Shown: piece after piece, positions 2,830 through 64,000 of the stretch
Numbering within the stretch: position 1 is the first letter of the stretch
How the letters are laid out: every line of letters begins with the position of its first letter
IMG/VR virus record: IMGVR_UViG_3300028048_000086
Location: 1-64,000 of that record
Reading direction: 5' to 3' (one strand)
DNA from: a virus
Taxonomy: Duplodnaviria; Caudoviricetes
DNA length: 64,000 bases
Notes under the pieces: model-generated
The model's input: the letters and a program-made list of their open reading frames with translations, nothing else
Told to the model about the DNA's origin: nothing
Database searches by the model: none
Position numbers and translations under genes: made by a program

Positions 2830-3618
2830 TTATTTAGCTGGTTCTGTAGTGCGATAAGAGATGATTGTAAATTGACTCTCATTCAATCCAAGATCAGAAG
2901 CTTTGAGATTCTTCGGAGCGTTTTTGATCTTTAATCCTTTGAGTTTCGTGCAGTTTTCAAACATTCTTTCCCATGTCGTAGCGGAAGTCATGTCGATGTC
3001 ACCAGGAATATTCTCAAGCGATTCACAGCCAGAGAACATTGTCTCAAAATTTTTTCCGCGAGAAGTATCCATTTCAGGGACTTCTTTCAGTGCTGAACAT
3101 CCAGCGAACATCGACCTAAAATTTTCAACTTTTGACGTATTGTATTTCGGTACATTCATAAGTTTGTGGCATCCAACGAATAAGCATTCCATGCTTGTTA
3201 TATTTTTTGTATCAAGCACTGGGGCAGTGACCAATGACGAACATCTTATAAATAGTTGAAGCGAAGTAACCGATGGATCTAATACGATTTTGTCAGGTAC
3301 TTCTTCCTTCGCAAAATCATACCCGTAAATACCGATAATCGAAGAATATCCATTGAGAATTAGATAATGTCCATCTTTAAAATGCTTCGCATCCACTTTC
3401 CCGTCATTATTCCAATCTATATTTTTAGGAACACCATTTAGTACGGCTTTTACGGCTTTAAACGGATACGAAGATTTCTCCATTTGCTCATTTGTTGGTT
3501 TTACAGCTTTTTCAACGCTAATGAGCTCGAAAGTGCTTGGTTCAAGAGAGTGAACATTAATAGGTATGGCATCCTCATCTTTGCTCGCCGAAATAATATC
3601 GATTCCATAGAACTTCAT
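2830..3618 (-). CDS. DUF285/BspA-like surface repeat protein (putative appendage or receptor-binding protein)
   Basis: ~23-aa repeats of the form DTKNITSMECLFVGCHKL / NTSKVENFRSMFAGCSAL / DTSRGKNFETMFSGCESL; AAGGAG RBS. Confidence 0.75.
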   Translation of the reverse strand: MKFYGIDIISASKDEDAIPINVHSLEPSTFELISVEKAVKPTNEQMEKSSYPFKAVKAVLNGVPKNIDWNNDGKVDAKHFKDGHYLILNGYSSIIGIYGYDFAKEEVPDKIVLDPSVTSLQLFIRCSSLVTAPVLDTKNITSMECLFVGCHKLMNVPKYNTSKVENFRSMFAGCSALKEVPEMDTSRGKNFETMFSGCESLENIPGDIDMTSATTWERMFENCTKLKGLKIKNAPKNLKASDLGLNESQFTIISYRTTEPAK

Positions 3619-5080: not shown

Positions 5081-6637
5081 TTAGTCAATGTAATTGTCGA
5101 TAACGTACTTGCCTGCTGCGATACCGATTTTCGAGAGGTCAAGAGAACGTGGTACATTCTTCAAGTGGAAGCCGTTGTCTTTTGTATTCTTCGCATTTTG
5201 GAACATATTGCCAACGTTCTCGGCGCTCGAAAGATCGATTGCCCACGGAAGTTCAACTAGCCTATAGTTTCCATTGAACAAGTTCGATAAATTTTTAGCC
5301 TGCTTTGTACTAAATTCTGGAATCGTATCGAAACTAGTACCGCAAAACATTCCTGACATATCGATTACGGATTCTGTATTGATAGCCTTTGTTGGCTTTA
5401 AGTATCCGCAACCATTAAACATTCCTTTCGCATTTGTTACCTTGTTCATATTAAGCCACTCAGGGAAATCCGTAATATGAGTGCTTGAGAACATATAGCT
5501 AGTATTTTCTGCTTTGCTCATGTCAAGCGTCGGGATTTTTTCGAGAACGCTCAGCCCTTGGAATATTCCGCTGAAATCTGTAAGATTACTTGTATCAAGC
5601 TTTTCTGGAATATGCGTTAATTTACAACGCATATCATAGCTATACATGCTGCCGATAGAATGATTGCTATCTGTCAGCGTCATAACGAATTCGTTAACTG
5701 AATCGTCAATATAATTATCAACGACGTACTTTGAAGCATCGCATCCAATCTTCGACAGATCGAGTTTCTTTGGTACGTTTTTAAGATGAACTCCGCCATC
5801 TTTTAGGGAGGTGCATCCTTCAAATACGCCTTCGGCAGAATAAACATTTTTCATGTCAATAGACTTAACGTCTTGAAGCGCCGTAGCATTTCTAAAAAGC
5901 CAATCGATATTTGTTGCATCATAGAAGCTTACGTTGCCGACGTGAATCATCTTAGAACCACTAAAGTCACAGTATGTAATACTATGCATAGCCATATCAC
6001 CAATGTCAGTGACCGTAGCTGGAATGCTGAGTACTTTCACGTATGGAGCGTCGAATGAAGGAAGCGTCGTGCGATTTTTATTCGACGACTTGTCAACGAC
6101 AGTTAAATTATCTATTTCCGGCATATCGAAATTTTGTTTCTCGAATTTTTGAACGTAATCTGGATTATGATTTGCAATGCGGTCATTTAAGTCTATCGTG
6201 TTATTCTTGTCTACAAACGAAACAAAAACACGATATGCTGGAAGAGACTTAAATTCGGGGTCATTAACTCCTGCGGGGAGCGCTAGCTCTGGATAAACGA
6301 CGAATTCTTTTCCGCGAAGATCCTGGTTTTCTCCTCGAAGAATGCTGTCTGCATATCCCCCAAGAGCACTGAGCGAAGAAACTGGGCTTTTTATGGCGTG
6401 GTAACCTCTTACGAAGTAATTGACTGTTGTTCCATCGTTTAGTTCAATATTGAAATTTGACGGTAGATCCTTGTCGTTGATATCTATCCCAGTGTTTACA
6501 TCCGAAGAGCGAATCGTATGAAGTTCTTCTTCTCCTATTACTCTTTTGATAGAACGAGGAGCGCCGTCAGCAATGGTCTTAATCGCTTTCAGAATCTCGC
6601 TCATAAAATTTTCGTCTAGTTGTTTTACGTCGATCAA
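5081..6637 (-). CDS. DUF285/BspA-like repeat protein with duplicated cap module
   Basis: Repeats such as LDTSNLTDFSGIFQG, LDMSKAENTSYMFSS, INTESVIDMSGMFCG; the cap HLKNVP..LDLSKIG....KYV.DNYID occurs twice. Confidence 0.75.
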   Translation of the reverse strand: MIDVKQLDENFMSEILKAIKTIADGAPRSIKRVIGEEELHTIRSSDVNTGIDINDKDLPSNFNIELNDGTTVNYFVRGYHAIKSPVSSLSALGGYADSILRGENQDLRGKEFVVYPELALPAGVNDPEFKSLPAYRVFVSFVDKNNTIDLNDRIANHNPDYVQKFEKQNFDMPEIDNLTVVDKSSNKNRTTLPSFDAPYVKVLSIPATVTDIGDMAMHSITYCDFSGSKMIHVGNVSFYDATNIDWLFRNATALQDVKSIDMKNVYSAEGVFEGCTSLKDGGVHLKNVPKKLDLSKIGCDASKYVVDNYIDDSVNEFVMTLTDSNHSIGSMYSYDMRCKLTHIPEKLDTSNLTDFSGIFQGLSVLEKIPTLDMSKAENTSYMFSSTHITDFPEWLNMNKVTNAKGMFNGCGYLKPTKAINTESVIDMSGMFCGTSFDTIPEFSTKQAKNLSNLFNGNYRLVELPWAIDLSSAENVGNMFQNAKNTKDNGFHLKNVPRSLDLSKIGIAAGKYVIDNYID

Positions 6638-6652
6638 GTTTATGCTCCTCTC

Positions 6653-7156
6653 TTAGTTCTTAGCCATGTAGACGATAGAAATGATATCTTTCGAGCTGAG
6701 GCTGAAGCCATTCGGATGCTTCTCGTCTTTGATACCGATCCACGTTTCTTCGTTCGTATTCTCGTCATACGAGTGGTCAGCACGAGCGTATTTGACGCCG
6801 TTGACGAAGAACATGATATTATCTTTATCAGCCGGAGTCTTCGTAAGCAAGAACTTCGTATCTCCATCCTGGCATTTGAATTCATCATTCTGAATGCCGC
6901 CGGAGACGATACTCGTAACCTGTTCTTTGACGATATTGATGATATTCTCTTTAACGTCAGTTACCTGATCAGAAGCTGTCTGAGATTTGTTAATTGCCTG
7001 AGACAGATTACCTTTCAGCTCATTGATAGCTTTCGTGATAGACTTCTGTGTTGTCTTCAGCTGGTTCAGCTTGTTGATTTTCGCATTAGCTTCAAGGGAA
7101 GTAGTGAGGACGTCTGCCTGGATCACGCTTAAATCCGTTGATTTATCGTAGGCCAT
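6653..7156 (-). CDS. Fibre-associated protein (coiled coil plus shared beta module)
   Basis: 167 aa; LKTTQKSITKAINEL is a fibre-type heptad motif; C-terminal FLLTKTP...FFVNGVKY module; GGAGG RBS. Confidence 0.6.
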   Translation of the reverse strand: MAYDKSTDLSVIQADVLTTSLEANAKINKLNQLKTTQKSITKAINELKGNLSQAINKSQTASDQVTDVKENIINIVKEQVTSIVSGGIQNDEFKCQDGDTKFLLTKTPADKDNIMFFVNGVKYARADHSYDENTNEETWIGIKDEKHPNGFSLSSKDIISIVYMAKN

Positions 7157-7172
7157 ATTTTAATACCTCCGG

Positions 7173-7829
7173 TTACGGCTCGTACGTGACACGTAGCTTA
7201 TAAGCTTTGTTCGTATAATCCATCTGAAGATCGAGAGAGCTGTCAAGGCAATAGCCGCCAAGGGGAGCGTCGAAGGACGGCGTAAATCCGAGAGCCTTCA
7301 GATCATTGAAGACCTTATCATTCTTTTCGCCGGCGTTTTCGACCCACGGAAGTTCGTAAGCGCTCGTCGGCTTGTCAGGCGTACCGAGGAAATAAACATG
7401 GATCTTACGGCCAACGCCATCAGCCGCCGCGCCTGCCGTATTATCATCCGTCATAACGGACTTCTGCTCATCCGTAAAGAGCGTCGAGATATCGAAATCC
7501 GTACCCGGCGTATTTTCCGGCGACGTAATGTCGACCGTCCAAGCTGCTTTCGGCTTATCATCCGTTTTCGGTTCTGTCGGTTCCGTTTTTGGAGTATCGG
7601 AAGAGCTTGTAGCTCTGGAGGCGATAAAGACGCCCTTCATATTTCCGTCTCTGTCTGCTTTCTTGTAATTTAGCGTGCAGTAGCTCTTATTCTCGTGGAG
7701 ATCTTTTTCGTCCACGAGAATCGCTTTCTTCGTGATATTGCCTTCATTGTCCTGAGCGTTGACCGTGACGTAGTATCCCGTAGACGGGGTATCTACGACA
7801 GCCAAGCCGCGAAATTCGATATCGGCCAT
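7173..7829 (-). CDS. Hypothetical appendage/decoration protein
   Basis: 218 aa; N-terminus (IEFRGLAVV...YVTVN) resembles those of 2830..3618 and 8010..9548; P/T/K-rich linker; AAGGAG RBS. Confidence 0.6.
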   Translation of the reverse strand: MADIEFRGLAVVDTPSTGYYVTVNAQDNEGNITKKAILVDEKDLHENKSYCTLNYKKADRDGNMKGVFIASRATSSSDTPKTEPTEPKTDDKPKAAWTVDITSPENTPGTDFDISTLFTDEQKSVMTDDNTAGAAADGVGRKIHVYFLGTPDKPTSAYELPWVENAGEKNDKVFNDLKALGFTPSFDAPLGGYCLDSSLDLQMDYTNKAYKLRVTYEP

Positions 7830-7910
7830 TCACTAAAAACTCCTTCCTAAAATTCGATTCTACGAGTAGAAGAATATAGTATATACTATGTTTTCCCTCG
7901 CCTTTTATCT

Positions 7911-7953
7911 ATTACGTTCGAGACTTTCGGCTACTCATTTTACGTTTTGAAAT
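7911..7953 (-). promoter_or_regulatory. Candidate phage late promoter ATTTCAAAACGTA-N24-CGTAAT (second copy)
   Basis: Boxes and spacer length identical to 2660..2702. Confidence 0.45.
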
Positions 7954-8009
7954 GATGAATTTGTGACGCGAAATATTCTTCGCAGTAAGTAGCTCAGGTA
8001 CCTTCTTAA

Positions 8010-9548
8010 TTACTTTTTTTGTTCTTCTATCTGATAGCGTAGTTTCTTATCGCTATTAAGAGACGCATCGCATTTCTCGATAGCTAGATCAAGGTTAGAA
8101 TTGATGAGATTAACGATATTTTTACGCATCACTTCTTCGGATGTAGCGGTCTTGACTAAGTCATAGTACAGTTTGAGTGTGGGATAATAGCTCGGAAGCT
8201 TTATTGGTTTACTGGTACGATTCTTAGCATCATGAATTTCTCCGTTCGCATAAACTGTACGATCTCGAACATATACGGTATTTTTATCATTAATGCCTTT
8301 TTCCGCGAGCTGGGCAACCGTAGTGTTTTTATCGTATTTCGTGCCATTAATCGAAAAACCGTCTGATCCTACTTCGAGAGCATCATGAATTTCATAATCG
8401 ATAATGCCGAAATCACCTTTTTGCCCATGTTTCGTATAGTCTTTTTCGACTGGGTAGCTAGATACAAAAGTTTCTTGAGCTTTCTCTTTTATCTTGGCCA
8501 TAACGTTAGGACTCGAGATACTTATAAGATCGCCTAAGCAAACAGAACTTCCACTTTTCTCGACGCCTTTGAGCCCGAGTGCCGTCGCACGCAGATCCGT
8601 AAAGCCGATTTTGACGGACTGGTTTGCTTTCGTGCCCGTCTGGAATACGAGTGCATTATCTTCCGAAGGATCCTGGGCACGGATGACTTCTTTGAAATCA
8701 TTCAACTTGCCGCTTGCCGTCTTGTTCACCGTACCATCTGAGCGAACCACTTGGAAAGTCAACCCTGAAATCTGCCCCTTGATGCCCGGCACCTTTGCCT
8801 GATAAACAATCGCATCTCCACCATCTGGTGTATATACGGATTCTCCATATTGATTTTTGCCAATATATGACGGATCACTCGAATTATACGCCATTCCCAT
8901 GACATCATCCATCGACCAAGTAGCAAATACATCCGACAGCACGGAGTATTCATCCACTTCCAACGGATCGCTCTGACTCGTAACACCATTTCGCACGTAC
9001 GAGACAATCAAGGTATCACCAACATGAATCCCCAGACTATTGCCATTCCGCTCGTTCATTTCCGTCAACGGCGTATTGAACGCATCTGTTCCTGCCTGCA
9101 AGCTCATATTTGCAAACGTCGTCAGCGTTCCTGGGTCTTTCACATAATTATTGTGAGATCCATCAACTAATGTCTTACCATTATACGTAACATTTCCGTT
9201 ATCATCAATTTGCTCGACAGCCTGATCGACTTCTTTCTGAATGGTGGCGCGATCGGCGTCCGTATTCGTATCATTCGCCGCGTTGATGGCCTTTTCCTTC
9301 AGCGTCTTGAGGATACTCTTAGTGTCGTTCACCATGTTTCCATGAGCGGTAAGCAGCTGAATCGCAGCGTTAGCCTCGGTAGCTTCCCAAACAACGTTCT
9401 TGCCGTTACTGAGTTCACCTTTATCATCATGAACGCAGAGAAGATTTGTTTCTACTTTATTATCTTTATTAATAGAAGTAAGGTTCACGGGAATATAAGC
9501 CGCGCCCGAATTTTTGATTTCTTGAATATCTAGATTCGAAAATTTCAT
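8010..9548 (-). CDS. Chimeric flagellin-domain protein (phage N-terminus plus flagellin D1/D2 region, no D0)
   Basis: ILKTLKEKAINAANDTNTDADRATIQKEVDQAVEQIDDNGNVTYNGKTLVDGSHN and FQTGTKANQSVKIGFTDLRATALGL are flagellin N-D1 and beta-hairpin signatures of the Selenomonas type. The terminal D0 helices are absent. Confidence 0.85.
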   Translation of the reverse strand: MKFSNLDIQEIKNSGAAYIPVNLTSINKDNKVETNLLCVHDDKGELSNGKNVVWEATEANAAIQLLTAHGNMVNDTKSILKTLKEKAINAANDTNTDADRATIQKEVDQAVEQIDDNGNVTYNGKTLVDGSHNNYVKDPGTLTTFANMSLQAGTDAFNTPLTEMNERNGNSLGIHVGDTLIVSYVRNGVTSQSDPLEVDEYSVLSDVFATWSMDDVMGMAYNSSDPSYIGKNQYGESVYTPDGGDAIVYQAKVPGIKGQISGLTFQVVRSDGTVNKTASGKLNDFKEVIRAQDPSEDNALVFQTGTKANQSVKIGFTDLRATALGLKGVEKSGSSVCLGDLISISSPNVMAKIKEKAQETFVSSYPVEKDYTKHGQKGDFGIIDYEIHDALEVGSDGFSINGTKYDKNTTVAQLAEKGINDKNTVYVRDRTVYANGEIHDAKNRTSKPIKLPSYYPTLKLYYDLVKTATSEEVMRKNIVNLINSNLDLAIEKCDASLNSDKKLRYQIEEQKK

Positions 9549-9670
9549 TTGTTTTTATTCTCCATTTCTTCGATTTTCTTCGTTAGCTCTTCTACTTTTC
9601 TCTCTAATTCTTCAATACGGGTAAGCAACGCCGCCCCGTTCTTGATTTGCCTAGGATCGATTAGTGGCAT
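9545..9670 (-). CDS. Small coiled-coil protein (41 aa; below the ORF-track cut-off)
   Basis: MPLIDPRQIKNGAALLTRIEELERKVEELTKKIEEMENKNK*; its start overlaps the upstream stop (TAATG) and its stop overlaps the downstream start (ATGA). Confidence 0.65.
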   Translation of the reverse strand: MPLIDPRQIKNGAALLTRIEELERKVEELTKKIEEMENKNK

Positions 9671-10665
9671 TATCCCTTACCCTCTTCCTTGCTGTCTTTA
9701 TTTTCTTCTGAGCTCCCAGAACCTTCCGTAGGAGATGGCGGCTCTGACGACGTAGAATCTCCGTTCTTATCATCTGACGGCTTATCTTCTGATGGAGAAG
9801 TTTCTTCCGACCCTTCTTTATCGGATCCCGACGACTCTTTCATGCCATCGCCGCCTTCCGAGGAAGAACTGGAAGAGTCACCTTCTGAAGGCTTGTCTTC
9901 TGTTCCCGACGTTTCTCCACCCGTAGGAGTATCAGAACCTTCGCCCGGCTTTTCACTTTCACCGGTACCGGAAGACTCTTCTCCACTCTTGCTATCTTCT
10001 CCACTCTTGCTATCTTCTCCAGAAGAAGAATCTGGCGGCGTGCTTTCTCCCGTGCCGCCTTCGCCGGAAGTTTCTTTCCCGCCGGTTCCGCTTTCTTCCG
10101 AAGAACCGGTACCCTCAGAAGAACCCGAAGACGTTCCTTCTCCGGTTCCAGTTCCACCTTCACCGGTCCCTCCGGATGAAGAAGTTCCACCCGATTCGGT
10201 TCCGCCAGAAGTCTCTTCTGACTTATCTATCTTCTCGTCCTTCGAATAGCTGTATTCAAAAACGACGTTCATATCACTGAGTTGAAAGCCTTCCGTAGAT
10301 TCTTCCGTATTCGTCCATTTGACGGTATTCGTATCTGCGTCGTACGTATAAAAAACGTCCGCTCCGTTGTTCCCGTTAAAGTAACGGAGACCGTCGATGA
10401 ATAGCTTGATTTTCCCGACCGGGATATGCGTCAACTGGAAATCTGTACGGTTCTCGCCTTCCGCTACCGAGAAGACATCTTCAAATTCTTTGACGATAGA
10501 TTTTGAGTCTCCGATTTCGATGTCTTTTGAACCATCGAACTCAACACCGTTGATCTTTACCGTTTTCTCTAAAGCTTTCGCTTTCCTGGCTACAAATTCG
10601 CTTCGAAGATAATTCATCGTAGTCTTCAGATGTTTTAGCTGCAAGACTCCCGAAATTTTTGCCAT
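9670..10665 (-). CDS. Fibre-associated protein with long Ser/Gly/Glu/Thr-rich tail
   Basis: KINGVEFDGSKDI fibre motif (also in 11972..14401), the shared beta module, then ~185 aa of low-complexity sequence including an 18-bp tandem duplication near 9977-10020. Confidence 0.65.
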   Translation of the reverse strand: MAKISGVLQLKHLKTTMNYLRSEFVARKAKALEKTVKINGVEFDGSKDIEIGDSKSIVKEFEDVFSVAEGENRTDFQLTHIPVGKIKLFIDGLRYFNGNNGADVFYTYDADTNTVKWTNTEESTEGFQLSDMNVVFEYSYSKDEKIDKSEETSGGTESGGTSSSGGTGEGGTGTGEGTSSGSSEGTGSSEESGTGGKETSGEGGTGESTPPDSSSGEDSKSGEDSKSGEESSGTGESEKPGEGSDTPTGGETSGTEDKPSEGDSSSSSSEGGDGMKESSGSDKEGSEETSPSEDKPSDDKNGDSTSSEPPSPTEGSGSSEENKDSKEEGKG

Positions 10666-10688
10666 CGATATTTCACCCCTACTTAGTA

Positions 10689-10719
10689 AAGAACGGAGAC
10701 TATAGCAGCCTCCGTTCTT
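10689..10719 (-). terminator. Intergenic hairpin / probable terminator
   Basis: Stem AAGAACGGAG/CTCCGTTCTT between 10726..11427 and 9670..10665; T-tract is short. Confidence 0.5.
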
Positions 10720-10725
10720 ACGACA

Positions 10726-11427
10726 TTATTTCCTGAGAACATCATCAACATCTTCATCCGAGGCTGCGCTGACGAATTCTTCATTTGCAGGCACCCATTC
10801 ATCTTCCGATGAATGACTTCCGCCATACGGAAGCGCTGTCTCTCTCAAGACACTCGAGACTTCTTCATCGGTAGCGTAACTGATGTAATCAGAATCAAGT
10901 GTCGGAGTCCAAGACTCGGGAGCCTCGCCAATCATGTCATCGATATCTTTATCCGTAGCTAGGTCAACATATTCATGAGCTCCTGGAACCCACTTCATCG
11001 TGTCTTCTATGTTGACGTGGTACAAGAAATAGACTTCATCGGCAAAGTTCTTATCTAGCTCGATGTCTCTCTTCCAGACTACCTGTCGAGATTCACGATC
11101 AACGGTAAAATCGTCGCCCTCGACGTACGTGAAGTTATTGACTAGAAGCAGTACGTTCCACGCGTTCGGAGTCTGATTCAGAGTGAAATTCTTCGTCGAA
11201 AATCTAGTGAGCTTAAATTTATCTAACTGGTCTCTTTCTCCGTGAGTCGGATGCCCCCAGATGCTTCCTTCTTTTTGGAGAATAGCTAGAATATCAGCAA
11301 TTGCTTTTTCTGATAGAATTCTGTCTTCTTGCGGAGTATCTGAGGGTTTTTGGAGTACCTCATCCATGTGGACGAGATCTCTTCCATACAGTAGTTCGTG
11401 TATGGTTTTAGAAAGGGAAACATCCAT
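10726..11427 (-). CDS. Fibre-associated protein
   Basis: Shared module FTLNQTP...LLVNN...EGDDFTVDR; DRILSEKAI matches DKVLSEKAV of 3707..5050; acidic A(T/S)D-D/E-(I/V) repeats at the C-terminus. Confidence 0.6.
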   Translation of the reverse strand: MDVSLSKTIHELLYGRDLVHMDEVLQKPSDTPQEDRILSEKAIADILAILQKEGSIWGHPTHGERDQLDKFKLTRFSTKNFTLNQTPNAWNVLLLVNNFTYVEGDDFTVDRESRQVVWKRDIELDKNFADEVYFLYHVNIEDTMKWVPGAHEYVDLATDKDIDDMIGEAPESWTPTLDSDYISYATDEEVSSVLRETALPYGGSHSSEDEWVPANEEFVSAASDEDVDDVLRK

Positions 11428-11449
11428 TTGATTTTCGTCCCCCTTCTAG

Positions 11450-11644
11450 TTATTTATTTTCTGTCTGCGCTTCTGATTCCGTTTTATTCGCTCTAGACTC
11501 AATCCCTAGCGGATCATCTTTCGAAACTTCAACCCCATGATTCGGGCAGCTTTCGTTTTCGCAGATATAATGAATTTGGTCTGCCTGCTGAACCAGACGA
11601 TGCCCGCACAGCTTGCAGCGCTTCGGAAGAGAGAAATTAAGCAT
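11450..11644 (-). CDS. Small Zn-ribbon protein (64 aa)
   Basis: MLNFSLPKRCKLCG...CENESCPNH with CxxC and CxxxxC motifs; ATG at 11644 overlaps the end of the upstream gene. The track start at 11752 is probably too long. Confidence 0.6.
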   Translation of the reverse strand: MLNFSLPKRCKLCGHRLVQQADQIHYICENESCPNHGVEVSKDDPLGIESRANKTESEAQTENK

Positions 11645-11975
11645 TTGTCTGCCCCTCCTTGTTAGCTTCTTCGATACTGACAGACGAAATAAGCTCAGCG
11701 TAGGAATCCTGAAGTTCCTTGATAAGCTCTTCGTCATTCTGGAGCTGGGCAAGTGCCATCTGGCGCATCAGCTCTTCTTTCGCTTCCACGAAAGCTTTTT
11801 CCGTCTCTTTCTTTTCATCGACGGGTTCTTCGACTTCTTCTACGGGAGGAATGAAGTCATCGGCAACTTCCTCCCAGCCGACGAAGTATTTTGCCTTCGC
11901 CTTATCTGAATAGTATTTATCTCCCCACGGAGCTTCGCTCTGGAGAACTTTCGTATTTACGTTATAATACATCAT
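11637..11975 (-). CDS. Putative tail fibre assembly/chaperone protein
   Basis: 112 aa, acidic, helical C-terminus, translationally coupled directly downstream of the fibre gene. Confidence 0.5.
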   Translation of the reverse strand: MMYYNVNTKVLQSEAPWGDKYYSDKAKAKYFVGWEEVADDFIPPVEEVEEPVDEKKETEKAFVEAKEELMRQMALAQLQNDEELIKELQDSYAELISSVSIEEANKEGQTNA

Positions 11976-14401
11976 AGCCAGTACTCATCCTCCACCTGAT
12001 CATCGATTCTCGCGTAGCAACCGACATAGCCGCTGTCTTTCCACGCGCCTTCCGTATAGCAGATATGATTGCCAACGTAGGCATCGATTGTCTGCATATA
12101 GCCGTTGATCTGTGAACCGACTCTCATGACACCGTAGTGATCCGTTTCCGAAGGAGCGACGAAACCATAAGACGGATAAACTTCCTTCATGCGGTTATCG
12201 TTCGGGCCTTCGCAGTAAACGAATTTCGTCTCGACGTTGTAGCGGCGGAACGGATTCGGCCACGAAACGATGCTTGTCGCCGGATCCAGCTTCGTGTTAT
12301 TGACCCAACGCCAGCCGAGGAACCTCCAGCGGTTGCCGAAGAACTCTCTTTCACGACGGCCGATATAATACGAAGAATCATCGTACATATAGATATCATC
12401 TTCATCGGCACGGCAGTAAGCGAGAACGAGTTCGTTGTTCGGATCCGTAACGTCCTCGATAATCGAGCTCATACCCTTCTTGAAGACCTGATGATAGATC
12501 GTGCTGATTTCGCCTTCGCCGAGAGCTCTCGGAACATACATGAAGTACGACATGTATCCTTTGAAATCATTGTCCGTCGTCATGTCCTTGTTATACGTAC
12601 CAAGAGAAATAGTGTCATTCGCGACGACTTTCTTCCAGTACGAATTCTGGCGCTTTGCCGTGATGCCATTCAGGAAGAACGTGAATTCCTGGTCCGTAAC
12701 CGTAATAGCAACGAAGTTGTCTTTGCCCGGCGTCGGCTTCAGGCCGGAAGTCACCCACTGGGAACCATTCGTACGGCCGCACCAGAAGGAAAGACCTGCC
12801 GCGTTATTAACGTTGATCGTGTCATCGCCTTCCGGATTCGAGCACGAGAACAGGAATTCTTCCGTATTCGTCGAGCCAACGATACGGTTTCTTTTGTCAA
12901 TGGCATCCGGATTGATGACGGCCATGATCGTGAATTCCTTCGGCATGATGATATTCGCCGAAGACGTAGCGAAATGGCCGCCTCCGCCGGCGAAGAAGAA
13001 TTCATTGCCGAGTCCGTTGCGGTTCACGCGAGTCGTAATGCCGGAAACAGAGCCATCGAATTTCTCTATATCGTCGAACGTGTATTCGATCTTGTCATCA
13101 TACTGAAGCGTCTTCGGATACGCGACAGTCTGTTTGTTATAAGAGTTGAAGAACAGGTAACGGTTATGGAAAGCGGAAACCTCATCGGCGCGGCGAATGT
13201 TGTGGCTGATTTCCAGGAAGCTGTAAACTGCTGCGCAGGGTTCGCCGGAATCAGCGTTCTTGCCGAGACGAACCGGAACCGTCTTATCCGGAGCCGGGAA
13301 AGCACGATTGCTATCGTGCGCAAGTTCCTGACCATTGACGAAAACGCTCCAGCGATTTCTCGCGAGATCATTCTGAATCGTAATCATGAACGGCTCATGT
13401 GGCTCTACTTTGAAGTTCAGACGATATGTGTCAACGTAAAGATCGCCATTCGCATCCGTACGAATCCGATACGTATCTTCCTTCGACATACGGAAGATTT
13501 CCTGAACAGCGTACGGATTATCGAGAGCGCAGATCAGCGTGATCTCGCCATCGACGTTGCCCGTGAGCATCGTCGCCGGATAATTGGCATCCGGGTCAAG
13601 ATCGACGTAGGAATCTTTGTTACCCATCGTATGAATACCGTAATCCGCGTAGCCATCGATCGAGAAAGAGCCATGCGGAATGAACGAGCAGTCTTCCGCA
13701 AGCTTGCTGATGCCGTAAGCTAGGTTCTGGAAATGCTCGCCGGAAAGTCTCGCGTTGAAGACCCAACATCCAATCGTATTATTGTTGATAAGATCGGACG
13801 TTCTGTAACCAGAGATTTCATGCTTCTTCAGCGTCGCATCTGCTTGAAGCGTAATCAACGCAGCAGATCTCTTAGAAATATCGATCGTGCCGCTGTTAAA
13901 TGTAATGTTGCGACCGCCGATAATCGCGTGGCCGGAGGAAACCGTCATCGTATGACCATCAATGCCGGAAACTTTCAGGCCATCAACGATGTAGCTCTTG
14001 CGGTCAACGCTGTCCGTCGAGATATTGATATCGTGCGTTCCATCGAATTCAACGCCATTGATCTGGACAGCTTTTTTGAGTTTCTCAGCGGTATGCGCAT
14101 CACCGACCGTGCGGATTGCCCACGTAATGCCGCCATCTTCCACAGTCTTGTCGCTATTGATTTTTATAACTGTTCCAGAAACAGCTTGGTTACTGGCAAC
14201 TGCGGTGCATTCCAGATACTGATTTGTTCTCAGCGCTGGATCGTAAGCGATATCGCCGACTCTATAATGAACGTTCGGCTGACGAAGATTTACTTTCGCT
14301 AGCCAAGAATCAAGGCCGTCTACCAGCTTCGCCTTTGTCGCGGGATAGGCTTTCTGATAGGAACTGCCAACCTTGACCTCCATCGTGCCTTCGAATGCCA
14401 T
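11972..14401 (-). CDS. Tail fibre / receptor-binding protein with two LamG (ConA-like) domains
   Basis: 809 aa; INGVEFDGTHDINI fibre motif; two beta-sandwich regions ending LEISHNIRRADEV and FKGYMSYFMYVPRALGEGEI; the second contains FTIMAVIN...FVAITV...FFLNG. Confidence 0.7.
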   Translation of the reverse strand: MAFEGTMEVKVGSSYQKAYPATKAKLVDGLDSWLAKVNLRQPNVHYRVGDIAYDPALRTNQYLECTAVASNQAVSGTVIKINSDKTVEDGGITWAIRTVGDAHTAEKLKKAVQINGVEFDGTHDINISTDSVDRKSYIVDGLKVSGIDGHTMTVSSGHAIIGGRNITFNSGTIDISKRSAALITLQADATLKKHEISGYRTSDLINNNTIGCWVFNARLSGEHFQNLAYGISKLAEDCSFIPHGSFSIDGYADYGIHTMGNKDSYVDLDPDANYPATMLTGNVDGEITLICALDNPYAVQEIFRMSKEDTYRIRTDANGDLYVDTYRLNFKVEPHEPFMITIQNDLARNRWSVFVNGQELAHDSNRAFPAPDKTVPVRLGKNADSGEPCAAVYSFLEISHNIRRADEVSAFHNRYLFFNSYNKQTVAYPKTLQYDDKIEYTFDDIEKFDGSVSGITTRVNRNGLGNEFFFAGGGGHFATSSANIIMPKEFTIMAVINPDAIDKRNRIVGSTNTEEFLFSCSNPEGDDTINVNNAAGLSFWCGRTNGSQWVTSGLKPTPGKDNFVAITVTDQEFTFFLNGITAKRQNSYWKKVVANDTISLGTYNKDMTTDNDFKGYMSYFMYVPRALGEGEISTIYHQVFKKGMSSIIEDVTDPNNELVLAYCRADEDDIYMYDDSSYYIGRREREFFGNRWRFLGWRWVNNTKLDPATSIVSWPNPFRRYNVETKFVYCEGPNDNRMKEVYPSYGFVAPSETDHYGVMRVGSQINGYMQTIDAYVGNHICYTEGAWKDSGYVGCYARIDDQVEDEYWL

Positions 14402-24100: not shown

Positions 24101-26144
24101 CGAAGCTGGCTTTTTTATCGATCTCGACATTCGAGATAGTATATGATGACTTTAAGAGCGACGGGCCGATATGGATATACTGGAACTGCGGAGCGTAGAT
24201 GCTCATGGACGTAACACGGATATGCATCACATTCTTGCCATATCCGATCGGCAGTCTCATATAATTCTGAGCGTAGATCATTTCACCATGATCGAAAGAG
24301 TATGTCACCGTATATCGAGCCGCCGTGATATTCCGAATCGTAACCGGAAGCATGCCTGCTTTAGTGATGACGACTTTAACTCTGGCCATATGATCGAATT
24401 CATAATGGAATGTTTTAGCCTTGGTATAAAGACCAGATTTCTCAGGATCTAGCTTTCCATCGATTGAAAACATGATGGAGATAGATCCCTGCTTCGCCGC
24501 ATCGGCCGCCGCCGCGAATGTATACGACAGCGAATTACAGTTGATATCGATCGTCACGGTACTCGCAGAATCGACAGAATGACTCTCGATATTCTTGCTA
24601 TCAACTAGAGCAAAGCTGCCAGTTGTCTTGACGAAGTTCTCGTCATTTGTGTAATTCATCTCACGGCAAGTATATGATGGCATTAGCAGCTGGCCTTCCA
24701 GACCGGAAATATCCAAGTCCATCGTGCCGACGGTGCCTTTGTCTCCTAACGTAAAACCTTCAAGATTATCTACCACGTTGTCGTAACTATCAAAAGTCTT
24801 TACCTGGGTGATATGGAACTTGACATCTGAGTTCCGCAGGACGCCGCCATTGAACTTGAAAGCTCCCTGCTCTTTCAGCAGGCTCTTCGATGTTTTTTCA
24901 TCATATACGAGATCGCATTTAGAAATCGTCATGTCCGAGTATTCACTTCTCGGATAGAACGTTAAATCATATTTCTGGCCGACTTCCGGCAATGCTCCGA
25001 CTTCTTCCGTTAAGTTACCTTTATCTAGTATGATTTCTGAAACCGGAGTCTGAATCTCGCCCGTGATATGCTGCTTTGATTTTACGTAAATCGTATTCGA
25101 ATCAATTTCCTGCGCATCAGAAGCAGTGATTTTATATTTTACGTCTTTCGAGATGAGTTCATCACGATATCTCTTCAGCTTAAGAGGTATCGTCTTCTGA
25201 ATCCCCTGCTTGCGAATATACTCGTTAACAGTGATTTGGTTCGCCTTATATCCGGTAACGTAAATATCCGTTGTCTCATCAGCAGAATCCGAAGACATCT
25301 TGACTTTCAAATCGCCACCTTGTCCGGTGCCATTCTGATACGTAGAAAGCTCTTTATCCCACTCGTTCGGGATATACGTCGTTTGCTTGAAGTTGTTTTC
25401 CCAGTAGCTCTGGTTCCAGACTTTGTCTTTCGCGCTATCTTGATTTAATTCAGAGATCTCATCATAGATCGTGCTTCCATTTTCGTCTTTCTCGAAGATA
25501 TTCTCTCCGTTAGGTTCTTCGAATAAGATTTCTTCTGGAAGCAGATTGTCATAGTTGATGACGCTGTTAATAATAGCGTTTTTCAAGCCGGCTTCCGCAG
25601 AACTCGTCGGATTCCGATAAACGGCATAAATGCGTTTGACTAATTCAGCATTTGTTTCTCCGTCGTAACGATCGATGCCGCTGAATAGGGCGTATTCATC
25701 GAAAATATTCCAGAGATGCTGTTTCGACGTATTCGCCGAATGGATGTATTTATCGATCGTCTCGTATTTGATTTCCGGACCGGGATCTTCTCCGAACACC
25801 AAGTAGCCGCCTTGATACAAGACATATTTCCTGATATCTCTCAAGAACTCTCTCGCTGATTCCGTTACTTCGAGAGCTGGAGATTTCATAGTAATTGTCG
25901 GCAGTTCTCCCACGAGAGAGATCCAGACGGTCTCTAAGACTTCGTCTTCCTTCTTGTCATACGTTTTTAGAAAGAAACTTTTCTCGAAGTCCTTGAATTC
26001 TTTACAGAGACTATCCTGCTCTTCAGTAAAAGCTGATAGAAGCTTGCCGCCGCGAGACGTGCGAAATCTCTTGTTGATGTCCATCCATTCAGGAAAGAAA
26101 TCTAACGCGATTTCGTTTGCCTGCTGAACATTATACATCTGCAT
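21153..26144 (-). CDS. Large baseplate wedge protein
   Basis: 1663 aa directly after the baseplate J-like gene; HLWNIFDEYALFSGIDRYDGETNAELVKRI resembles the gpI/gp7-type N-terminal motif. Confidence 0.6.
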   Translation of the reverse strand: MQMYNVQQANEIALDFFPEWMDINKRFRTSRGGKLLSAFTEEQDSLCKEFKDFEKSFFLKTYDKKEDEVLETVWISLVGELPTITMKSPALEVTESAREFLRDIRKYVLYQGGYLVFGEDPGPEIKYETIDKYIHSANTSKQHLWNIFDEYALFSGIDRYDGETNAELVKRIYAVYRNPTSSAEAGLKNAIINSVINYDNLLPEEILFEEPNGENIFEKDENGSTIYDEISELNQDSAKDKVWNQSYWENNFKQTTYIPNEWDKELSTYQNGTGQGGDLKVKMSSDSADETTDIYVTGYKANQITVNEYIRKQGIQKTIPLKLKRYRDELISKDVKYKITASDAQEIDSNTIYVKSKQHITGEIQTPVSEIILDKGNLTEEVGALPEVGQKYDLTFYPRSEYSDMTISKCDLVYDEKTSKSLLKEQGAFKFNGGVLRNSDVKFHITQVKTFDSYDNVVDNLEGFTLGDKGTVGTMDLDISGLEGQLLMPSYTCREMNYTNDENFVKTTGSFALVDSKNIESHSVDSASTVTIDINCNSLSYTFAAAADAAKQGSISIMFSIDGKLDPEKSGLYTKAKTFHYEFDHMARVKVVITKAGMLPVTIRNITAARYTVTYSFDHGEMIYAQNYMRLPIGYGKNVMHIRVTSMSIYAPQFQYIHIGPSLLKSSYTISNVEIDKKASFAIETNCRVELRKNGTLVDSDYDTHTSYVNQTDSDAPVIIDISRYSNITASSPVINTIAYHGSNAATFSVKPGESIRYITFSGEVTRNTGEQTLSTILNLSTDDKLFISGTSDGFIIKNGEQTRVVSIYPRDLPVKSDQFEFSGLPDNVRGVFILDALHNNTIESSKISSAAFDHCFLRPTKYNTYIAYNSVQLLQPSMKNIPVINTFFPAIPNGKLIYMTVESPTLENGEKVDIEFEKSDGSDTYYTDWALGENHLGLRVAYDLEFGNNTSYQLDVDNLNESFTLSNNIELEDSYQIGDTSYDLARYLIIPPDDMKVSYQKETTVEELYIEEDGFNKLWYSNATEILDINCGGKKLHESSYSLLPDAGIVTWKLGKEYVGQKVKITYQYLRPKSLEFKDVSSLYEIIGYPVDAYEVINKTPIVYKKLKDGEQRELQFEDGPASRIIVHTNNSDFYTTLSGPVVTVHRYPDRNVAIVQSGYYYDGKDEYYLYSDDDTDSVNRMEDIELKNISRTANTLQGSPESNNYVLDTVMTNGDHLEKICVIDCHDDQDRIEGVSDFKATTACDSYQLWRSFGMNISLVPSINGLGINFQKKESAAYALLNITQAIKSNSWLSFYADAGIDAYIMKEIYAGVDRMARSIFCQSIGQCERDDKYLTYHFENLEEETRYYLCIMGSGAIDDIILEDSLDETRHTKFIDSIQLDIPEQTHKRMLVKEAFTSEGNREDNAEIAQDGRIETGSSIDWGVTRIAEFKDNFDEFVGYRVGLRKNAFYTGTEAGTITSPWTYLPDHENVLALYIKINDVLVDGFRFFNIHVQTSPTQNGDNLREVLLDKKTNMVSVVGSELDSFVRIVVEIPANRVIENIEIYARYAENAKHDLHVLPRVNGSVITKVYDLVTSANYRLRRIEGSATNLKNIEISVRGCREDDNSIVWTDWYSAKLNNRLGFSDSHVFYDYRYFQLKIEINDTSASIKIDNIVFEVAS

Positions 26145-26940
26145 TACTCGTATCTCCTATCCAGTGGATTTCATCGAAGAGCATCTTAGATTCCGTATCC
26201 TGAAGAATTCGCATCGTGCTAACTTGATAGTTATTGATATAGAGGCCGAGAACGCTAAAATACTCTACGTTTGAAGTATTAACGCCCATACGATTGATAT
26301 CTCCGATTGACAGGTAATCATTCGGCGCGATAGAGTTGATATAAGTAGAGATAGAGTCTGTAAGATACTGCTTGATAGCTGTCTCGTCCTGACTTGTTTT
26401 GAGATAGATTTCGAGAGAAACTGAACGGACTTCAGGGATAATATAATCAACGTAGAGCTGGGCACTCGCATACTTCTCGATAATCTTACGAGCCTCCAGT
26501 AAAGATTCGCTGATAGATTCTTGCGTATAATGCTTTGGAATCACGTAGCACGTCGCCGTACCGCATCCATGCGTAAAAGTAACGAACGAGATGTTCTCCG
26601 CGTATTGAGGAGACAAACATGCCGTATCGATTGCCGTACGGTTCGATGTCTCCATCATCTGTTCCCATTTCATCAGGCGATATTTATAAGAATCATCGCT
26701 CTCTCCGGACTTGCGCGGAACATTAACCCAAGTGCCGGTATCATCAAGACGAGTCCCTTCTAGGTATGTCCATACATGAGGCGTACGATTGTCATCGATT
26801 GCCTGATAGTTTCCATGGACTTCTTCGGCGGCAGCCAGGGCATAAAGGTCGATGACTGCGCCCGGATCATCTCCAGTTTTCTCGACGAATCTATCTCGTA
26901 TATCTTGAAAGATTTCGTCAGATGTTTTTACTTCTGCCAC
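26131..26940 (-). CDS. Baseplate J-like (gp6-like) protein
   Basis: GTRLDDTG...RKSGESDDSYKYRL and GCGTATCYVIP motifs; follows the gp25-like gene. Confidence 0.7.
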   Translation of the reverse strand: MAEVKTSDEIFQDIRDRFVEKTGDDPGAVIDLYALAAAEEVHGNYQAIDDNRTPHVWTYLEGTRLDDTGTWVNVPRKSGESDDSYKYRLMKWEQMMETSNRTAIDTACLSPQYAENISFVTFTHGCGTATCYVIPKHYTQESISESLLEARKIIEKYASAQLYVDYIIPEVRSVSLEIYLKTSQDETAIKQYLTDSISTYINSIAPNDYLSIGDINRMGVNTSNVEYFSVLGLYINNYQVSTMRILQDTESKMLFDEIHWIGDTSNADV

Positions 26941-62017: not shown

Positions 62018-64000
62018 TCAGCTATTCGTCGTAATGGTGTCAACCATCTTGATCGAGTTGCTGACCTCGCGAATTTCATAGATCGGGATGATCTGATAGT
62101 CGATCTCGATACGGTTGAACTTCATGAGGCTCGGATCCGTATTCATCGTGAAGTCGTACTTCTCGATGAGCTTGTTGACGATCTTATCAAGTTCGGACTT
62201 GATCGCCGTATTAAGAGCATTACGGTTCGCCTGATGATTTTCCTTACCGATGAACGGCTCAGCAGCAGCACGAATGAGCTCTTCAACTGCACCGACGATA
62301 CGGCTCGTGGAAAGGCGACGGTAAATCGACTCTGCCGGAGCCATCGTGATACCATCCGTAACGACGATACCCTTCGTGAACGAGTTCTTGAAGGTGACTG
62401 CACCGTAAGACGTGAGGCGACCAAGCTGAGTATTCGTCAGCGTGTAGCTCGGCGTCGGAATAGAAATCGTCTGGCCCGTGGAGCTCTGATCAAGCGGAAG
62501 CGTTGAAACCATCGCGGCATAACCAGCGGCACCGTTGGAGATGTACTGATAGTTCGTGCTGCCAACCGTGATCGGATACTGACCGAAGACAAGAGAAACG
62601 TTCTTGCCAATCGGATACGGCATCGAGTTTGAATCCAGCATGTTGTGGCCGACGCTCGTCTTCGCGTAGAGATCAAAATCACGATCAACGATCGAAGAAA
62701 CCTTCTTCGCGACAGAAGCGAGGCCGAGATTCGAAAGCGTTTTAACACCGATCACACCATGCGTCGGAGCCGTTTTGATTTCCGTATACGTGCAGTGCTG
62801 TGCAAGCTGACGAACAAAGTTGTCGCTCGTACGATACGGAATATAACGAGAGTAATCATACGTGAGCTGACGATCTTCGAGAGAAACAACCTCTGCCGGA
62901 GTTCCCGGGGTCGTCGTGCTCGGACCGCCACCGACACCCGGAACCGTCGTGCCCGGAGTAGCGAATGCCTTCTTCGCGTTCTCAGCTTCCTCGACAAAAT
63001 CATCTTTTTCGAGAGAGCCGTCATCCGTAAGAGACGTGATGAACAGGCGGCTGAAAACTGTATCCGCATTAAGATCTTCTGCGATTTCATCAACCGTAGA
63101 CGTGTCAAAGATGTTCGAACGAACGATGACATGATTGAGAACTCCGCCGAGGTTCGTAGCTGCGACTGTAAGAATATCAGAAGTATCCGTAGCAGACAGC
63201 TTCGAGAACTCGCCCTGCGGAACCATCGAACCGCTTTCTTCTTTATATACGAAAACCATGCTCATGTCATCACCAAGAGCGTACTCCTTGCCAGCAGAAA
63301 GCGTATCGGCAATAAGAGCACCCGTTGCGTCAGCTTTCATGAGCTTAGCATCGCCTGTCGCGTCGATGACGATATATTTCGTTCCATCAGCAACCGTGCC
63401 GGAAACATCATCAATCGACTTATCGCCAACGCGCTTCAGCTTTCCGCCGACACTGATAAGCGTACCGTTATCGTAATCATCGACTTCAGGATCTGACGGG
63501 AGTTCAGCGATGATCTTGCGGATATCATCCGTATCGACCTTATCCATCTTATCAGCGATGGAGTCTGCATCCGTGATCTTCTCGAACTTGATATCAAACT
63601 TGCGAGCAGCCTTCAGATCAGACTGAGCAACGTTTGCTTTGACGCGGATATCGCCGCCAAGGACGATTGCATCATTCGCGGCTGCAACGCGGAACGAATT
63701 TGCTCTCGGAAGTTTGCCGTTGATGCTTTCATCCGCACTAGCGCAGGTAAGAACGCGATACTTTGCATTCGAGTCCTGAATGACCGAATAAATGCCATCC
63801 GTGATAGCAACAACATGATTCGAATCATCAGCTTCAGATTCCTTGATGCGCGGACGGAGCTCTTTGCCTTCGCTATCAACACGGCGAATCGCATGAGCCG
63901 TAATAGCGTAGCCCATGCCGAGACGCTGGTAAATATCGAACGGCGTCATGCTCGTTTCCTCGTAGTCAATGTCGTCCTTCGTGAAGACACGATCCGTGAG
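62018..64000 (-). CDS. Tail sheath protein, partial (start beyond the right edge)
   Basis: C-terminal sheath signature DGITMA...YRRLSTSRIV...AAEPFIGKEN...IDYQIIPIYEIREV; directly upstream of the tube gene; the frame stays open to the window edge. Confidence 0.85.
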   Translation of the reverse strand, partial: LTDRVFTKDDIDYEETSMTPFDIYQRLGMGYAITAHAIRRVDSEGKELRPRIKESEADDSNHVVAITDGIYSVIQDSNAKYRVLTCASADESINGKLPRANSFRVAAANDAIVLGGDIRVKANVAQSDLKAARKFDIKFEKITDADSIADKMDKVDTDDIRKIIAELPSDPEVDDYDNGTLISVGGKLKRVGDKSIDDVSGTVADGTKYIVIDATGDAKLMKADATGALIADTLSAGKEYALGDDMSMVFVYKEESGSMVPQGEFSKLSATDTSDILTVAATNLGGVLNHVIVRSNIFDTSTVDEIAEDLNADTVFSRLFITSLTDDGSLEKDDFVEEAENAKKAFATPGTTVPGVGGGPSTTTPGTPAEVVSLEDRQLTYDYSRYIPYRTSDNFVRQLAQHCTYTEIKTAPTHGVIGVKTLSNLGLASVAKKVSSIVDRDFDLYAKTSVGHNMLDSNSMPYPIGKNVSLVFGQYPITVGSTNYQYISNGAAGYAAMVSTLPLDQSSTGQTISIPTPSYTLTNTQLGRLTSYGAVTFKNSFTKGIVVTDGITMAPAESIYRRLSTSRIVGAVEELIRAAAEPFIGKENHQANRNALNTAIKSELDKIVNKLIEKYDFTMNTDPSLMKFNRIEIDYQIIPIYEIREVSNSIKMVDTITTNS

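Follow-up and report, generated by a model that had tools for sequence, protein, structure and literature searches.

The stretch considered here, positions 1 to 64,000 of the IMG/VR virus record IMGVR_UViG_3300028048_000086 (hereafter the window, 64,000 nucleotides (nt) long), belongs to a large myovirus from a family of large Selenomonadaceae rumen myophages, and carries at 8010..9548 (-) a flagellin-derived chimeric gene. Its product of 512 amino acids (aa), P0001, is a flagellin that has kept the D1 and outer domains and lacks ND0, the proximal part of ND1a, the proximal part of CD1 and CD0. The clearest result of our analysis is an evolutionary one: three phage lineages possess tracts of 295-409 nt identical to three different host alleles, which indicates that gene conversion, allele by allele, is still carrying sequence from a gene of the host chromosome into a phage gene for a structural module. 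We propose, at what we would call an even chance, that the protein may be a virion appendage displaying a host-matched flagellin surface.

Read from the N-terminus, with all positions on the minus strand, the protein consists of a phage-specific segment (aa 1-57; 9378..9548), found in eight family proteins only and modelled with low confidence by AlphaFold2 (AF2); the flagellin ND1 helices (aa 58-134; 9147..9377), that is distal ND1a together with ND1b, located by Pfam and in the AF2 model; the surface-exposed flagellin outer domain (aa 135-299; 8652..9146), which matches bacterial alleles and is the exchanged cassette; the D1 beta-hairpin (aa 300-330; 8559..8651), located by alignment to the Hag hairpin and by its conservation among orthologues; a phage-specific orphan insertion (aa 331-470; 8139..8558) at the position of the classical flagellin D2/D3 domains; and a C-terminal helix (aa 471-512; 8013..8138), which on AF2 superposition corresponds to the distal flagellin CD1 and closes the D1 three-helix bundle. 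Intact orthologues occupy the same slot in four other phage contigs, L004 (136 kb), L006 (158 kb), L005 (13 kb) and L009 (8.8 kb).

The exchange with bacterial genes is most evident at the nucleotide level. Gene nt 323-731 (8818..9226 (-)) form a 409-nt tract that is 100% identical to a flagellin gene in a metagenome-assembled genome (MAG) of Veillonellaceae/Selenomonadaceae (L001 6001-7326), and the flanks of this tract fall to 71-93% identity. The L004 orthologue has a 295-nt identical run with the gene of the bacterial flagellin P0068, and the L009 orthologue a 396-nt run with the gene of P0020; the runs of 409, 295 and 396 nt belong to three different phage-bacterium pairs, with flanks of 71-97%. 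In the simplest reading the crossovers fall in the conserved coding sequence of ND1b and of the hairpin, the ND1 helices serving as the 5' homology arm and the hairpin as the 3' one. Identical tracts of this kind need a very recent cell shared by the phage and the bearer of the allele, which identifies the host as a member of the Selenomonadaceae; a Selenomonas-like source and host had been anticipated by the first-pass annotation, made from the letters alone, and the best matches, to flagellins of Selenomonas type (72-76%), one of them identical over 409 nt, bear it out.

Comparison of the phage orthologues segment by segment gives 59-100% identity for the N-terminus and 69-95% for ND1, and for the outer domain 29-67% between lineages and 65-99% within the lineage P0031-P0034/P0096, while the hairpin is 87-97% conserved among P0001, P0002 and P0003 and reaches 97% identity with bacterial alleles. 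The segments have been shuffled independently among the orthologues: P0003 and P0032, for instance, agree completely in the N-terminus, and their outer domains are just 35% identical. P0001, P0002, P0003 and P0005 are each 85-94% identical over the central block to a different bacterial allele, and in a maximum-likelihood tree of this block each is sister to a different bacterial allele, with support of 97-100 in the Shimodaira-Hasegawa-like approximate likelihood-ratio test (SH-aLRT). At least five changes of the phage label are needed on the tree, and forcing the phage sequences into one clade costs 463 log-likelihood units and is rejected (approximately unbiased test, p 1.6e-6). The cassette swaps, together with this rejection of monophyly, mean that the flagellin block is not the product of a single capture. 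In a sliding comparison P0001 proves to be pieced together from several bacterial alleles: the nearest is P0004 over aa ~101-250, P0006/P0007 over 236-280, and others beyond, and its similarity to any bacterial flagellin drops to 40% before aa ~70 and to 63% after aa ~327. The simplest reading of these sequence relations is that host chromosomal flagellin genes have repeatedly been converted into the phage gene; the direction, from host to phage, is taken from the nesting of the phage sequences within bacterial diversity, and transfer from phage to host is possible.

It might be suggested that the phage took up a flagellin fragment a single time and uses it simply as a rigid spacer or scaffold, a passenger with no role tied to the flagellum, whose host-like tracts arose by neutral gene conversion. 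Homology arms of 80-100% identity make conversion likely whether it is useful or not, and the bacterial flagellins stay distant (49-56% identity) from the P0031-P0034/P0096 lineage, which forms a long branch. Nevertheless, the outer domain is folded (predicted local distance difference test score, pLDDT, 93) and intact in every lineage, lost in no orthologue, even though the orphan region exists in at least four unrelated versions and the remainder of the C-terminal half has undergone four or more exchanges; moreover, one relative has a second flagellin-like module. We regard the passenger explanation as quite unlikely.

The phage-only parts are under purifying selection. The N-terminal segment has a dN/dS of 0.20-0.24 among relatives (0.23 between the window and L004), and the orphan insertion, again between the window and L004, shows a pN of 0.18 against a pS of 0.71. 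The phage-specific C-terminal part also occurs in contigs of two rumen metatranscriptome studies, a weak hint at expression, as such libraries can contain DNA.

The presence within a metagenomic contig of a 409-nt tract identical to a bacterial gene could also be put down to misassembly, an abundant flagellin gene of the host having been joined to a phage contig, and the read-depth spike at a conserved 40-nt flagellin stretch would fit with that; the spike comes from other flagellin genes. The stretch is present in bovine gut metagenomes of many studies, and contigs with zero mismatches from two independent runs, belonging to studies other than the probable source, bridge three critical places: those of X2 cover the N-terminal junction (9276-9729) and the C-terminal junction (8373-8847), and a single contig of X3 (8529-9274) covers the identical tract together with phage-specific flanks on both sides. 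The same joined sequence is thus found in two other studies and the same architecture in orthologues on four other contigs, no bacterial allele has the phage flanks that lie within the flagellin block, and the reading frame is intact and under selection. The probability of a chimera is, in our estimation, negligible. Two of the ways in which the first-pass annotation might have failed, chimeric junctions and a gene decaying in related phages, are answered by these data: the junctions are real, and the orthologues are intact, with purifying selection in relatives.

The bacterial loci that carry the donor alleles deserve a description of their own. P0004 and P0068 are encoded in the same type of locus, comprising a 52-aa open reading frame (ORF), a Fic gene, the flagellin and a protein of more than 3000 aa; in the donor loci L001:3785-13326 and L008:1-5348 this large protein has 3186-3368 aa and no Pfam match. 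In L001 a further flagellin gene lies just upstream, called as two ORFs (Flagellin_N and Flagellin_C), possibly owing to a frameshift. On the phage side, the fibre block of L004 has received an RRXRR/HNH endonuclease gene (L004:5189-6652) that neither the window nor L006 contains and that looks like a mobile nuclease near the recombining cassette.

The flagellin nature of the core is evident from sequence searches. Pfam Flagellin_N matches aa 58-131 at profile positions 63-137 of 139 (E 4e-10; 40 bits, the cut-off being 26.6 bits), and phmmer against the PDB returned about 45 flagellins with the same footprint, Hag-type chains giving an additional weaker match at aa 293-336, which is the D1 beta-hairpin. 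A large protein search found hundreds of flagellins of ~440 aa (Selenomonas, Selenomonadaceae, Veillonellaceae, Schwartzia; up to 76% identity), all with Flagellin_N and Flagellin_C, that cover just the middle 50-60% of the query, and eight longer proteins (449-554 aa) that span the whole query and are without Flagellin_C. The best bacterial matches of the core are Selenomonas/Selenomonadaceae/Veillonellaceae flagellins of 72-76% identity; the best by BLASTP is P0004, a 441-aa flagellin of a Veillonellaceae MAG (76% identity, query 60-372 aligned with flagellin 70-382), to which P0001 is essentially perfectly identical over aa ~108-246. Flagellin_C was found neither in the protein (E up to 0.1) nor across the 118-kb record to which the window belongs (E up to 1). 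The record is estimated to be 46% complete.

From the letters alone, the earlier reading had placed a flagellin core at aa ~58-326, had seen the D1 hairpin in the FQTGTKANQ...DLRATALGL stretch, had considered both D0 ends to be missing and had likened the C-terminal INSNLDLAIEK to the C-D1 helix. The Flagellin_N and BLASTP matches confirm the core, and the FQTGTKANQ...DLRATALGL stretch does align with the D1 beta-hairpin of Hag-type flagellins; the loss of both D0 ends agrees with the profile start at position 63, with the failure to find Flagellin_C and with the bounds of the structural alignment. As to the C-terminal helix, the support is structural, from the D1 superposition, and is weak in sequence: its motif LDxAIEKCD is kept in all orthologues, and hhalign places it at the start of the bacterial CD1 (P0004 351-365) with a P of 0.005. 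As that reading had also expected, the protein searches found the N- and C-terminal parts in phages only. No homologue of the orphan insertion (aa 331-470) was returned by phmmer from 1.84 billion representative proteins, and the ESM Atlas gave for it a flagellin_C-like lead below threshold (0.86) and no structural match above a TM-score of 0.4. Relatives of P0001 were also missing from 50,697 phage records searched by tblastn and from an IMG/VR scan with the family alignment.

An AF2 model calculated from a 51-sequence alignment has a mean pLDDT of 68, with 65-87 for the D1 helices. Helices span 58-90 and 97-118, the beta-rich domain (135-300) and the last helix (471-511, pLDDT 80-87) are predicted with confidence, and the hairpin occupies 300-329; region 331-470 is poorly defined and residues 1-55, with pLDDT below 40, are unmodelled. 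Superposition of model residues 55-512 by VIA-align gave for 5gy2_C a Z of 17.2 with a root-mean-square deviation of 2.6 A over 162 residues, and further D1 matches to 3v47_C (Z 16.6), 1io1 (Z 16.1, chain 62-437) and 6gow_D, which is Hag (Z 15.9, chain 61-247). The D1 superpositions have a Z of 15-17 over 145-170 residues and extend through the C-terminal helix to residue 512, which lets this last helix stand in for the distal CD1. The structural alignment thus begins, at model residue 55, with flagellin residue 61 and ends with Hag 247 or FliC 437, and by this prediction the D1 fold, composed of the ND1a/ND1b/CD1 helical bundle and the beta-hairpin, is present in the phage protein. The outer domain was also folded separately, with a pLDDT of 93, and the nearest folds found for it are FliD D2-D3 and flagellin outer domains at a middling Z of 6-8 (maximum 8.1), a likeness that is unremarkable for a flagellin surface domain; the domain alone had no Foldseek match below E 1e-3, and VIA-align gave no enzymatic or lectin fold. 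In Selenomonadaceae flagellins, too, the outer domain lies between ND1b and the hairpin, and the phage adds to this arrangement an unrelated 140-aa insertion at the D2/D3 site. In the model the N- and C-termini of the D1 fold come together at one end, with the two variable domains opposite, a geometry in which a virion arrangement anchored by its base and facing outwards would be natural.

The genomic context is that of tail and fibre genes. Upstream of the flagellin-like gene, a tail sheath gene lies at 62018-63949 (phrog_16991, E 6e-49; nearest isolates Bacillus phage 0305phi8-36 and Moorella phage MTATph1, ~30% identity) and a baseplate wedge gene at 26131-26940, and three consecutive giant ORFs (2840, 3006 and 2190 aa; 30690-55032 (-)) stand between the sheath/tube region and the baseplate genes. 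Nearer to the flagellin-like gene there is an 809-aa Laminin_G_3 fibre protein (11972-14401) carrying the tail-fibre motif of the gene at 9670..10665 (-). This latter, fibre-like gene encodes 331 aa with a tail-fibre-type N-terminus (phrog_1833, E 0.003, aa 21-62) and a Ser/Gly/Glu-rich tail, and its first ~55 residues are common to a 350-aa gene of the relatives, where they carry a DUF285/BspA-like leucine-rich repeat (LRR) payload. The apparent gap of 121 nt upstream of the flagellin-like gene is in fact occupied by a conserved coiled-coil ORF of 41 aa, P0121 (9545..9670 (-)), which had been under the 60-aa cut-off for ORFs. The stop of the fibre-like gene runs into the start of this ORF (TAATG), whose own stop overlaps in the same manner with the start of the flagellin-like gene (ATGA), and the DNA of the small ORF is nearly invariant in four phages, both flanking genes being variable; its product may be an assembly factor or adaptor of the flagellin-like protein. 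Gene order is the same around the orthologues: an 810-aa Laminin_G_3 fibre, three small genes, the fibre-like gene, the tiny ORF and the flagellin-like gene, followed downstream by a 223-aa gene, a 167-aa gene and DUF285 genes. The stop/start overlaps and the fibre-like neighbour suggest that the flagellin-like gene is expressed within a modular fibre/appendage operon; it is encoded in the tail/baseplate/fibre block and translationally coupled to the fibre-like gene, and its earlier assignment to a tail-fibre cluster is strengthened by these overlaps.

Several side observations concern this region. An insertion of ~85 nt, GC-rich and with inverted repeats, lies between the small ORF and the flagellin-like gene in L004 only (L004:~7920-8000) and breaks there the ATGA overlap of the other three phages. 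The genes at 9670-10665, 10726-11427 and 6653-7156 (all -) have in common, by eye, a beta-rich motif of ~60 aa (F.LT..P, hydrophobic-x-[DN]G..Y, D...V.W, then a strand ending in Y), which may be a repeated small domain of appendage proteins. A conserved non-coding element at ~7845-7960 (-), upstream of the 218/223-aa gene and found also at L006:9663-9785 and L009:~8370-8477, contains a near-palindrome that occurs once in the window, ATAGTATATACTATATTC, and is far better conserved than the flanking coding sequence; its probable role is that of a promoter or operator for the transcription unit that follows. A scan of 6500-12000 for promoters and terminators gave nothing better than shuffles, and the idea of a moron with its own promoter and terminator was rejected, the signals there being at shuffle level.

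The N-terminal segment is the proposed anchor. Its first 59 residues are confined to this family among proteins of comparable length. The first-pass annotation had taken it to resemble the N-termini of the neighbouring appendage genes, which for most of them does not stand: comparisons with g7173, g9670, g10726 and other neighbours by BLAST, shuffle tests and hhalign were not significant. What is left of the claim is the relation to DUF285 proteins, at marginal significance. A hidden Markov model (HMM) of aa 1-32 matches a 237-aa DUF285 protein of L006 (14057-14770) with E 0.002 in a 463-ORF database and, after one iteration, the first ~26 residues of the DUF285/BspA-like LRR gene of the window (2830..3618 (-); Pfam DUF285 E 2e-14) with E 0.03, and the model found no copies in the 118-kb record beyond this gene. 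Two host-type surface payloads may therefore share an N-terminal docking peptide, a possibility weakly supported by these sequence matches. In L009, at 8157-8370, a short stop-interrupted ORF that begins MKFQGM*LVDKPETGTYVQVNV lies between the flagellin-like gene and the 223-aa gene; its start looks intermediate between the N-termini of the flagellin-like and the 218/223-aa proteins, and it may be a decayed paralogue.

D0 is required for the export of flagellin and for filament assembly. In Bacillus subtilis, FliW protects residues 11-34, 50-72 and 240-260 of the flagellin Hag, the first 60-72 residues being sufficient for FliW binding, while FliS wraps D0-C and a part of D1-C, and the contacts of FlhA include D0-C (PMC6070490). 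The phage protein corresponds to Hag 61-247 only, so that the segments binding FliW and FliS are largely deleted, and we infer that flagellar type III export and polymerisation into a filament are impossible for it, because D0 and the FliS/FlhA-binding C-terminus are gone. The losses coincide almost exactly with the parts that would expose it to chaperones, export, feedback and polymerisation, while the rigid D1 stalk and the exposed domain are retained. It would be logical to suggest that, deprived of D0 and of the FliW, FliS and FlhA segments, the protein escapes export, polymerisation and feedback and remains cytoplasmic, available for virion assembly; that its base attaches it to the particle, through the N-terminal peptide and perhaps with the 41-aa coiled-coil protein; and that the host-matched flagellin surface and the orphan domain then point outwards, as an adhesin or a mimic tied to the flagellar surface of the host. 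The outer domain, for its part, has been replaced again and again, and recently, with sequence from the chromosomal flagellin genes of the strain then infected.

The same deletions bear on a different proposal, in which the protein would act inside the infected cell as a non-exportable mimic that titrates FliW, FliS, FlhA or a flagellin glycosyltransferase, or poisons flagellin folding, with the result that synthesis of the flagellum is shut down or rewired in infection. The intact D1 fold and the host-identical outer domain could be read by any factor recognising those surfaces, and the P0001 sequence shows no apparent signal peptide or membrane segment. The flagellin of Selenomonas sputigena is, according to a citing passage of 10.1101/2024.05.20.594992, heavily glycosylated, and glycosylation enzymes act on surface domains in the cytoplasm. 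Nevertheless, a decoy for FliS or FliW, as the first-pass annotation had also suggested, is argued against by the fact that their binding regions in the B. subtilis flagellin are largely the deleted parts; partners reading the conserved D1 would need neither the orphan domain nor a conserved N-terminus, and the translational coupling to fibre-like genes speaks for a structural role. Besides, FliS and PF07282 (the TnpB/Cas12f-type zinc-ribbon, as in TldR) were not found in the 118-kb record, itself a fragment. We hold such a cytoplasmic modulator to be unlikely.

A third possibility is a soluble decoy, released at lysis or exported by means of the new N-terminus, which would circulate as a monomeric copy of the host flagellin surface and engage competing flagellotropic phages or the animal's anti-flagellin antibodies. 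An allele-matched outer domain would suit a decoy for allele-specific binders, and from what is established of flagellin polymerisation a protein without D0 would stay monomeric. The sequence gives no signs of secretion, however, the conserved orphan insertion and the coupling to the fibre operon are left unexplained, and the benefit would go to kin or host and not to the lysing phage. This makes a decoy of that sort, to our mind, improbable.

Returning to virion display, which we find plausible, a conserved N-terminus followed by variable mosaic distal domains is a pattern typical of receptor-binding proteins, as far as it can be judged from alignments. Candidate ligands would be the host filaments or their bundle, engaged by homotypic contacts, and ligands of host flagella, or there may be no ligand at all, in the case of mimicry. 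A more specific version of virion display, which we consider rather unlikely, is that the virion-borne outer domain docks allele-specifically on the host filaments or bundle, using outer-domain to outer-domain contacts like those between flagellin subunits or neighbouring filaments, and that the host range is kept by copying the allele of the current host into the cassette through the conserved D1 arms, a receptor recognition by self-mimicry; a side effect would be that the phage ferries flagellin surface alleles between strains.

Several points weigh against virion display and should be taken into account together. P0001 matches nothing in PHROG at E up to 0.01, tail-fibre families included; its model is a monomeric helical bundle and not a trimeric fibre; the N-terminal anchor is shared with at most one other gene family and at marginal significance; frequent gene conversion could be a neutral by-product of homology to an abundant host gene and not an adaptive tracking of alleles; and all 64 kb of the window are on one strand, which means that orientation says little.

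The end of the gene shows one more peculiarity. Directly before the stop codon there is a slippery-type heptamer, A_AAA_AAG (8013..8019 (-)), a candidate site by sequence reading, and the first ~12 codons of the -1 frame of the window resemble the lead-in to a second flagellin-like module in L004, with a stop after 33 codons (7910-8021). In L004 (9546-10483) the flagellin-like gene ends in an A_AAA_AAA run that overlaps its stop, and there a -1 frame of ~308 aa begins. It codes for a second, divergent module made up of an ND1-type helix, an outer domain, a hairpin and a terminal AIDRCD helix, with 30-33% identity to the phage as well as the bacterial copies. The homologous part has no ATG, GTG or TTG ahead of it, and the GTG chosen by the gene caller at 9689 cuts into the homology. 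By this reading of the frames, the second module is a candidate either for a -1 frameshift fusion or for a start-less silent cassette. For the RNA that follows the heptamers, in L004 as in the window, the predicted folds did not surpass those of shuffled sequences, and in-frame fused two-module proteins were not found, which is weak evidence; the idea of a -1 frameshift is a lead only.

Among known systems the closest one is the flagellin of the Selenomonadaceae itself (FliC/Hag, ~440 aa), with which the phage protein shares the D1 fold, the outer domain between ND1b and the hairpin, and up to 100% identity over ~136 aa and 409 nt. It differs by the absence of ND0, of the first part of ND1a, of the proximal CD1 and of all CD0, by the gain of a 57-aa N-terminus and a 140-aa orphan domain, and by its location in a fibre operon and not in a flagellar locus. 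The bacterial flagellin homologues of Sphingomonas sp. A1 (2zbi, 3k8v, 3k8w) are similar to the phage protein in sequence (E 5e-6) and structure (Z 14-15). They are alginate-binding proteins of the cell surface, outside a motility filament. Unlike the phage protein, they keep the flagellin termini and have no phage context or cassette exchange.

Conserved N-termini with independently shuffled distal domains, and a location among fibre genes, also relate the gene to the mosaic tail-fibre and receptor-binding genes of phages, and the neighbouring gene, whose one N-terminus carries either a low-complexity tail or a DUF285 LRR payload, follows the same rule. In contrast to such genes, the donor of the module is here a structural gene of the host chromosome and not a fibre gene of a phage or prophage, and a flagellin D1 bundle, without a match to any tail-fibre family, takes the place of a trimeric fibre as the scaffold. 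The cassette logic recalls pilE/pilS of Neisseria, where a variable surface segment between conserved arms is overwritten by homologous recombination from other copies; the related phage with a start-less second copy beside the expressed gene makes the resemblance closer. In the phage the donors are in the host genome, no dedicated recombination signal was found, and the outcome is a match to the host and not an escape from recognition.

The phage-borne flagellins described so far are, according to the authors who reported them, the full-length, host-divergent and filament-forming FliCP of TldR prophages (PMC13418256). In temperate Enterobacter phages FliCP has a conserved D0/D1 core, joins host filaments and works together with an RNA-guided repressor (PMC13418256). 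Both there and here a phage carries a flagellin homologue whose variable outer domain is functionally important. The differences are that D0 is absent here, that the outer domain is near-identical to that of the host and that the phage is a large myovirus, and PF07282 and Phage_integrase were not found in the 118-kb record, which is ~46% complete. In the literature, subscription journals being outside our coverage, we found no phage flagellin without D0 and no phage gene that swaps cassettes with a host flagellin gene.

The identical tracts provide an unusually direct link to the host for uncultured rumen phages, and the system offers a natural setting for asking whether phages track the surface variation of their hosts by copying it. 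If the displayed domain mediates adsorption, this would be a new principle of receptor recognition, with a bearing on the origin and spread of flagellin surface diversity in gut communities. Compared with the known phage flagellins and mosaic appendage genes, we see as different the architecture and the presumed role, and as unusual the donor, the host chromosome: a giant phage of lytic appearance makes a different use of flagellin, keeping the part that presents a surface, dropping the parts for export and feedback, and placing what is left in its fibre operon.

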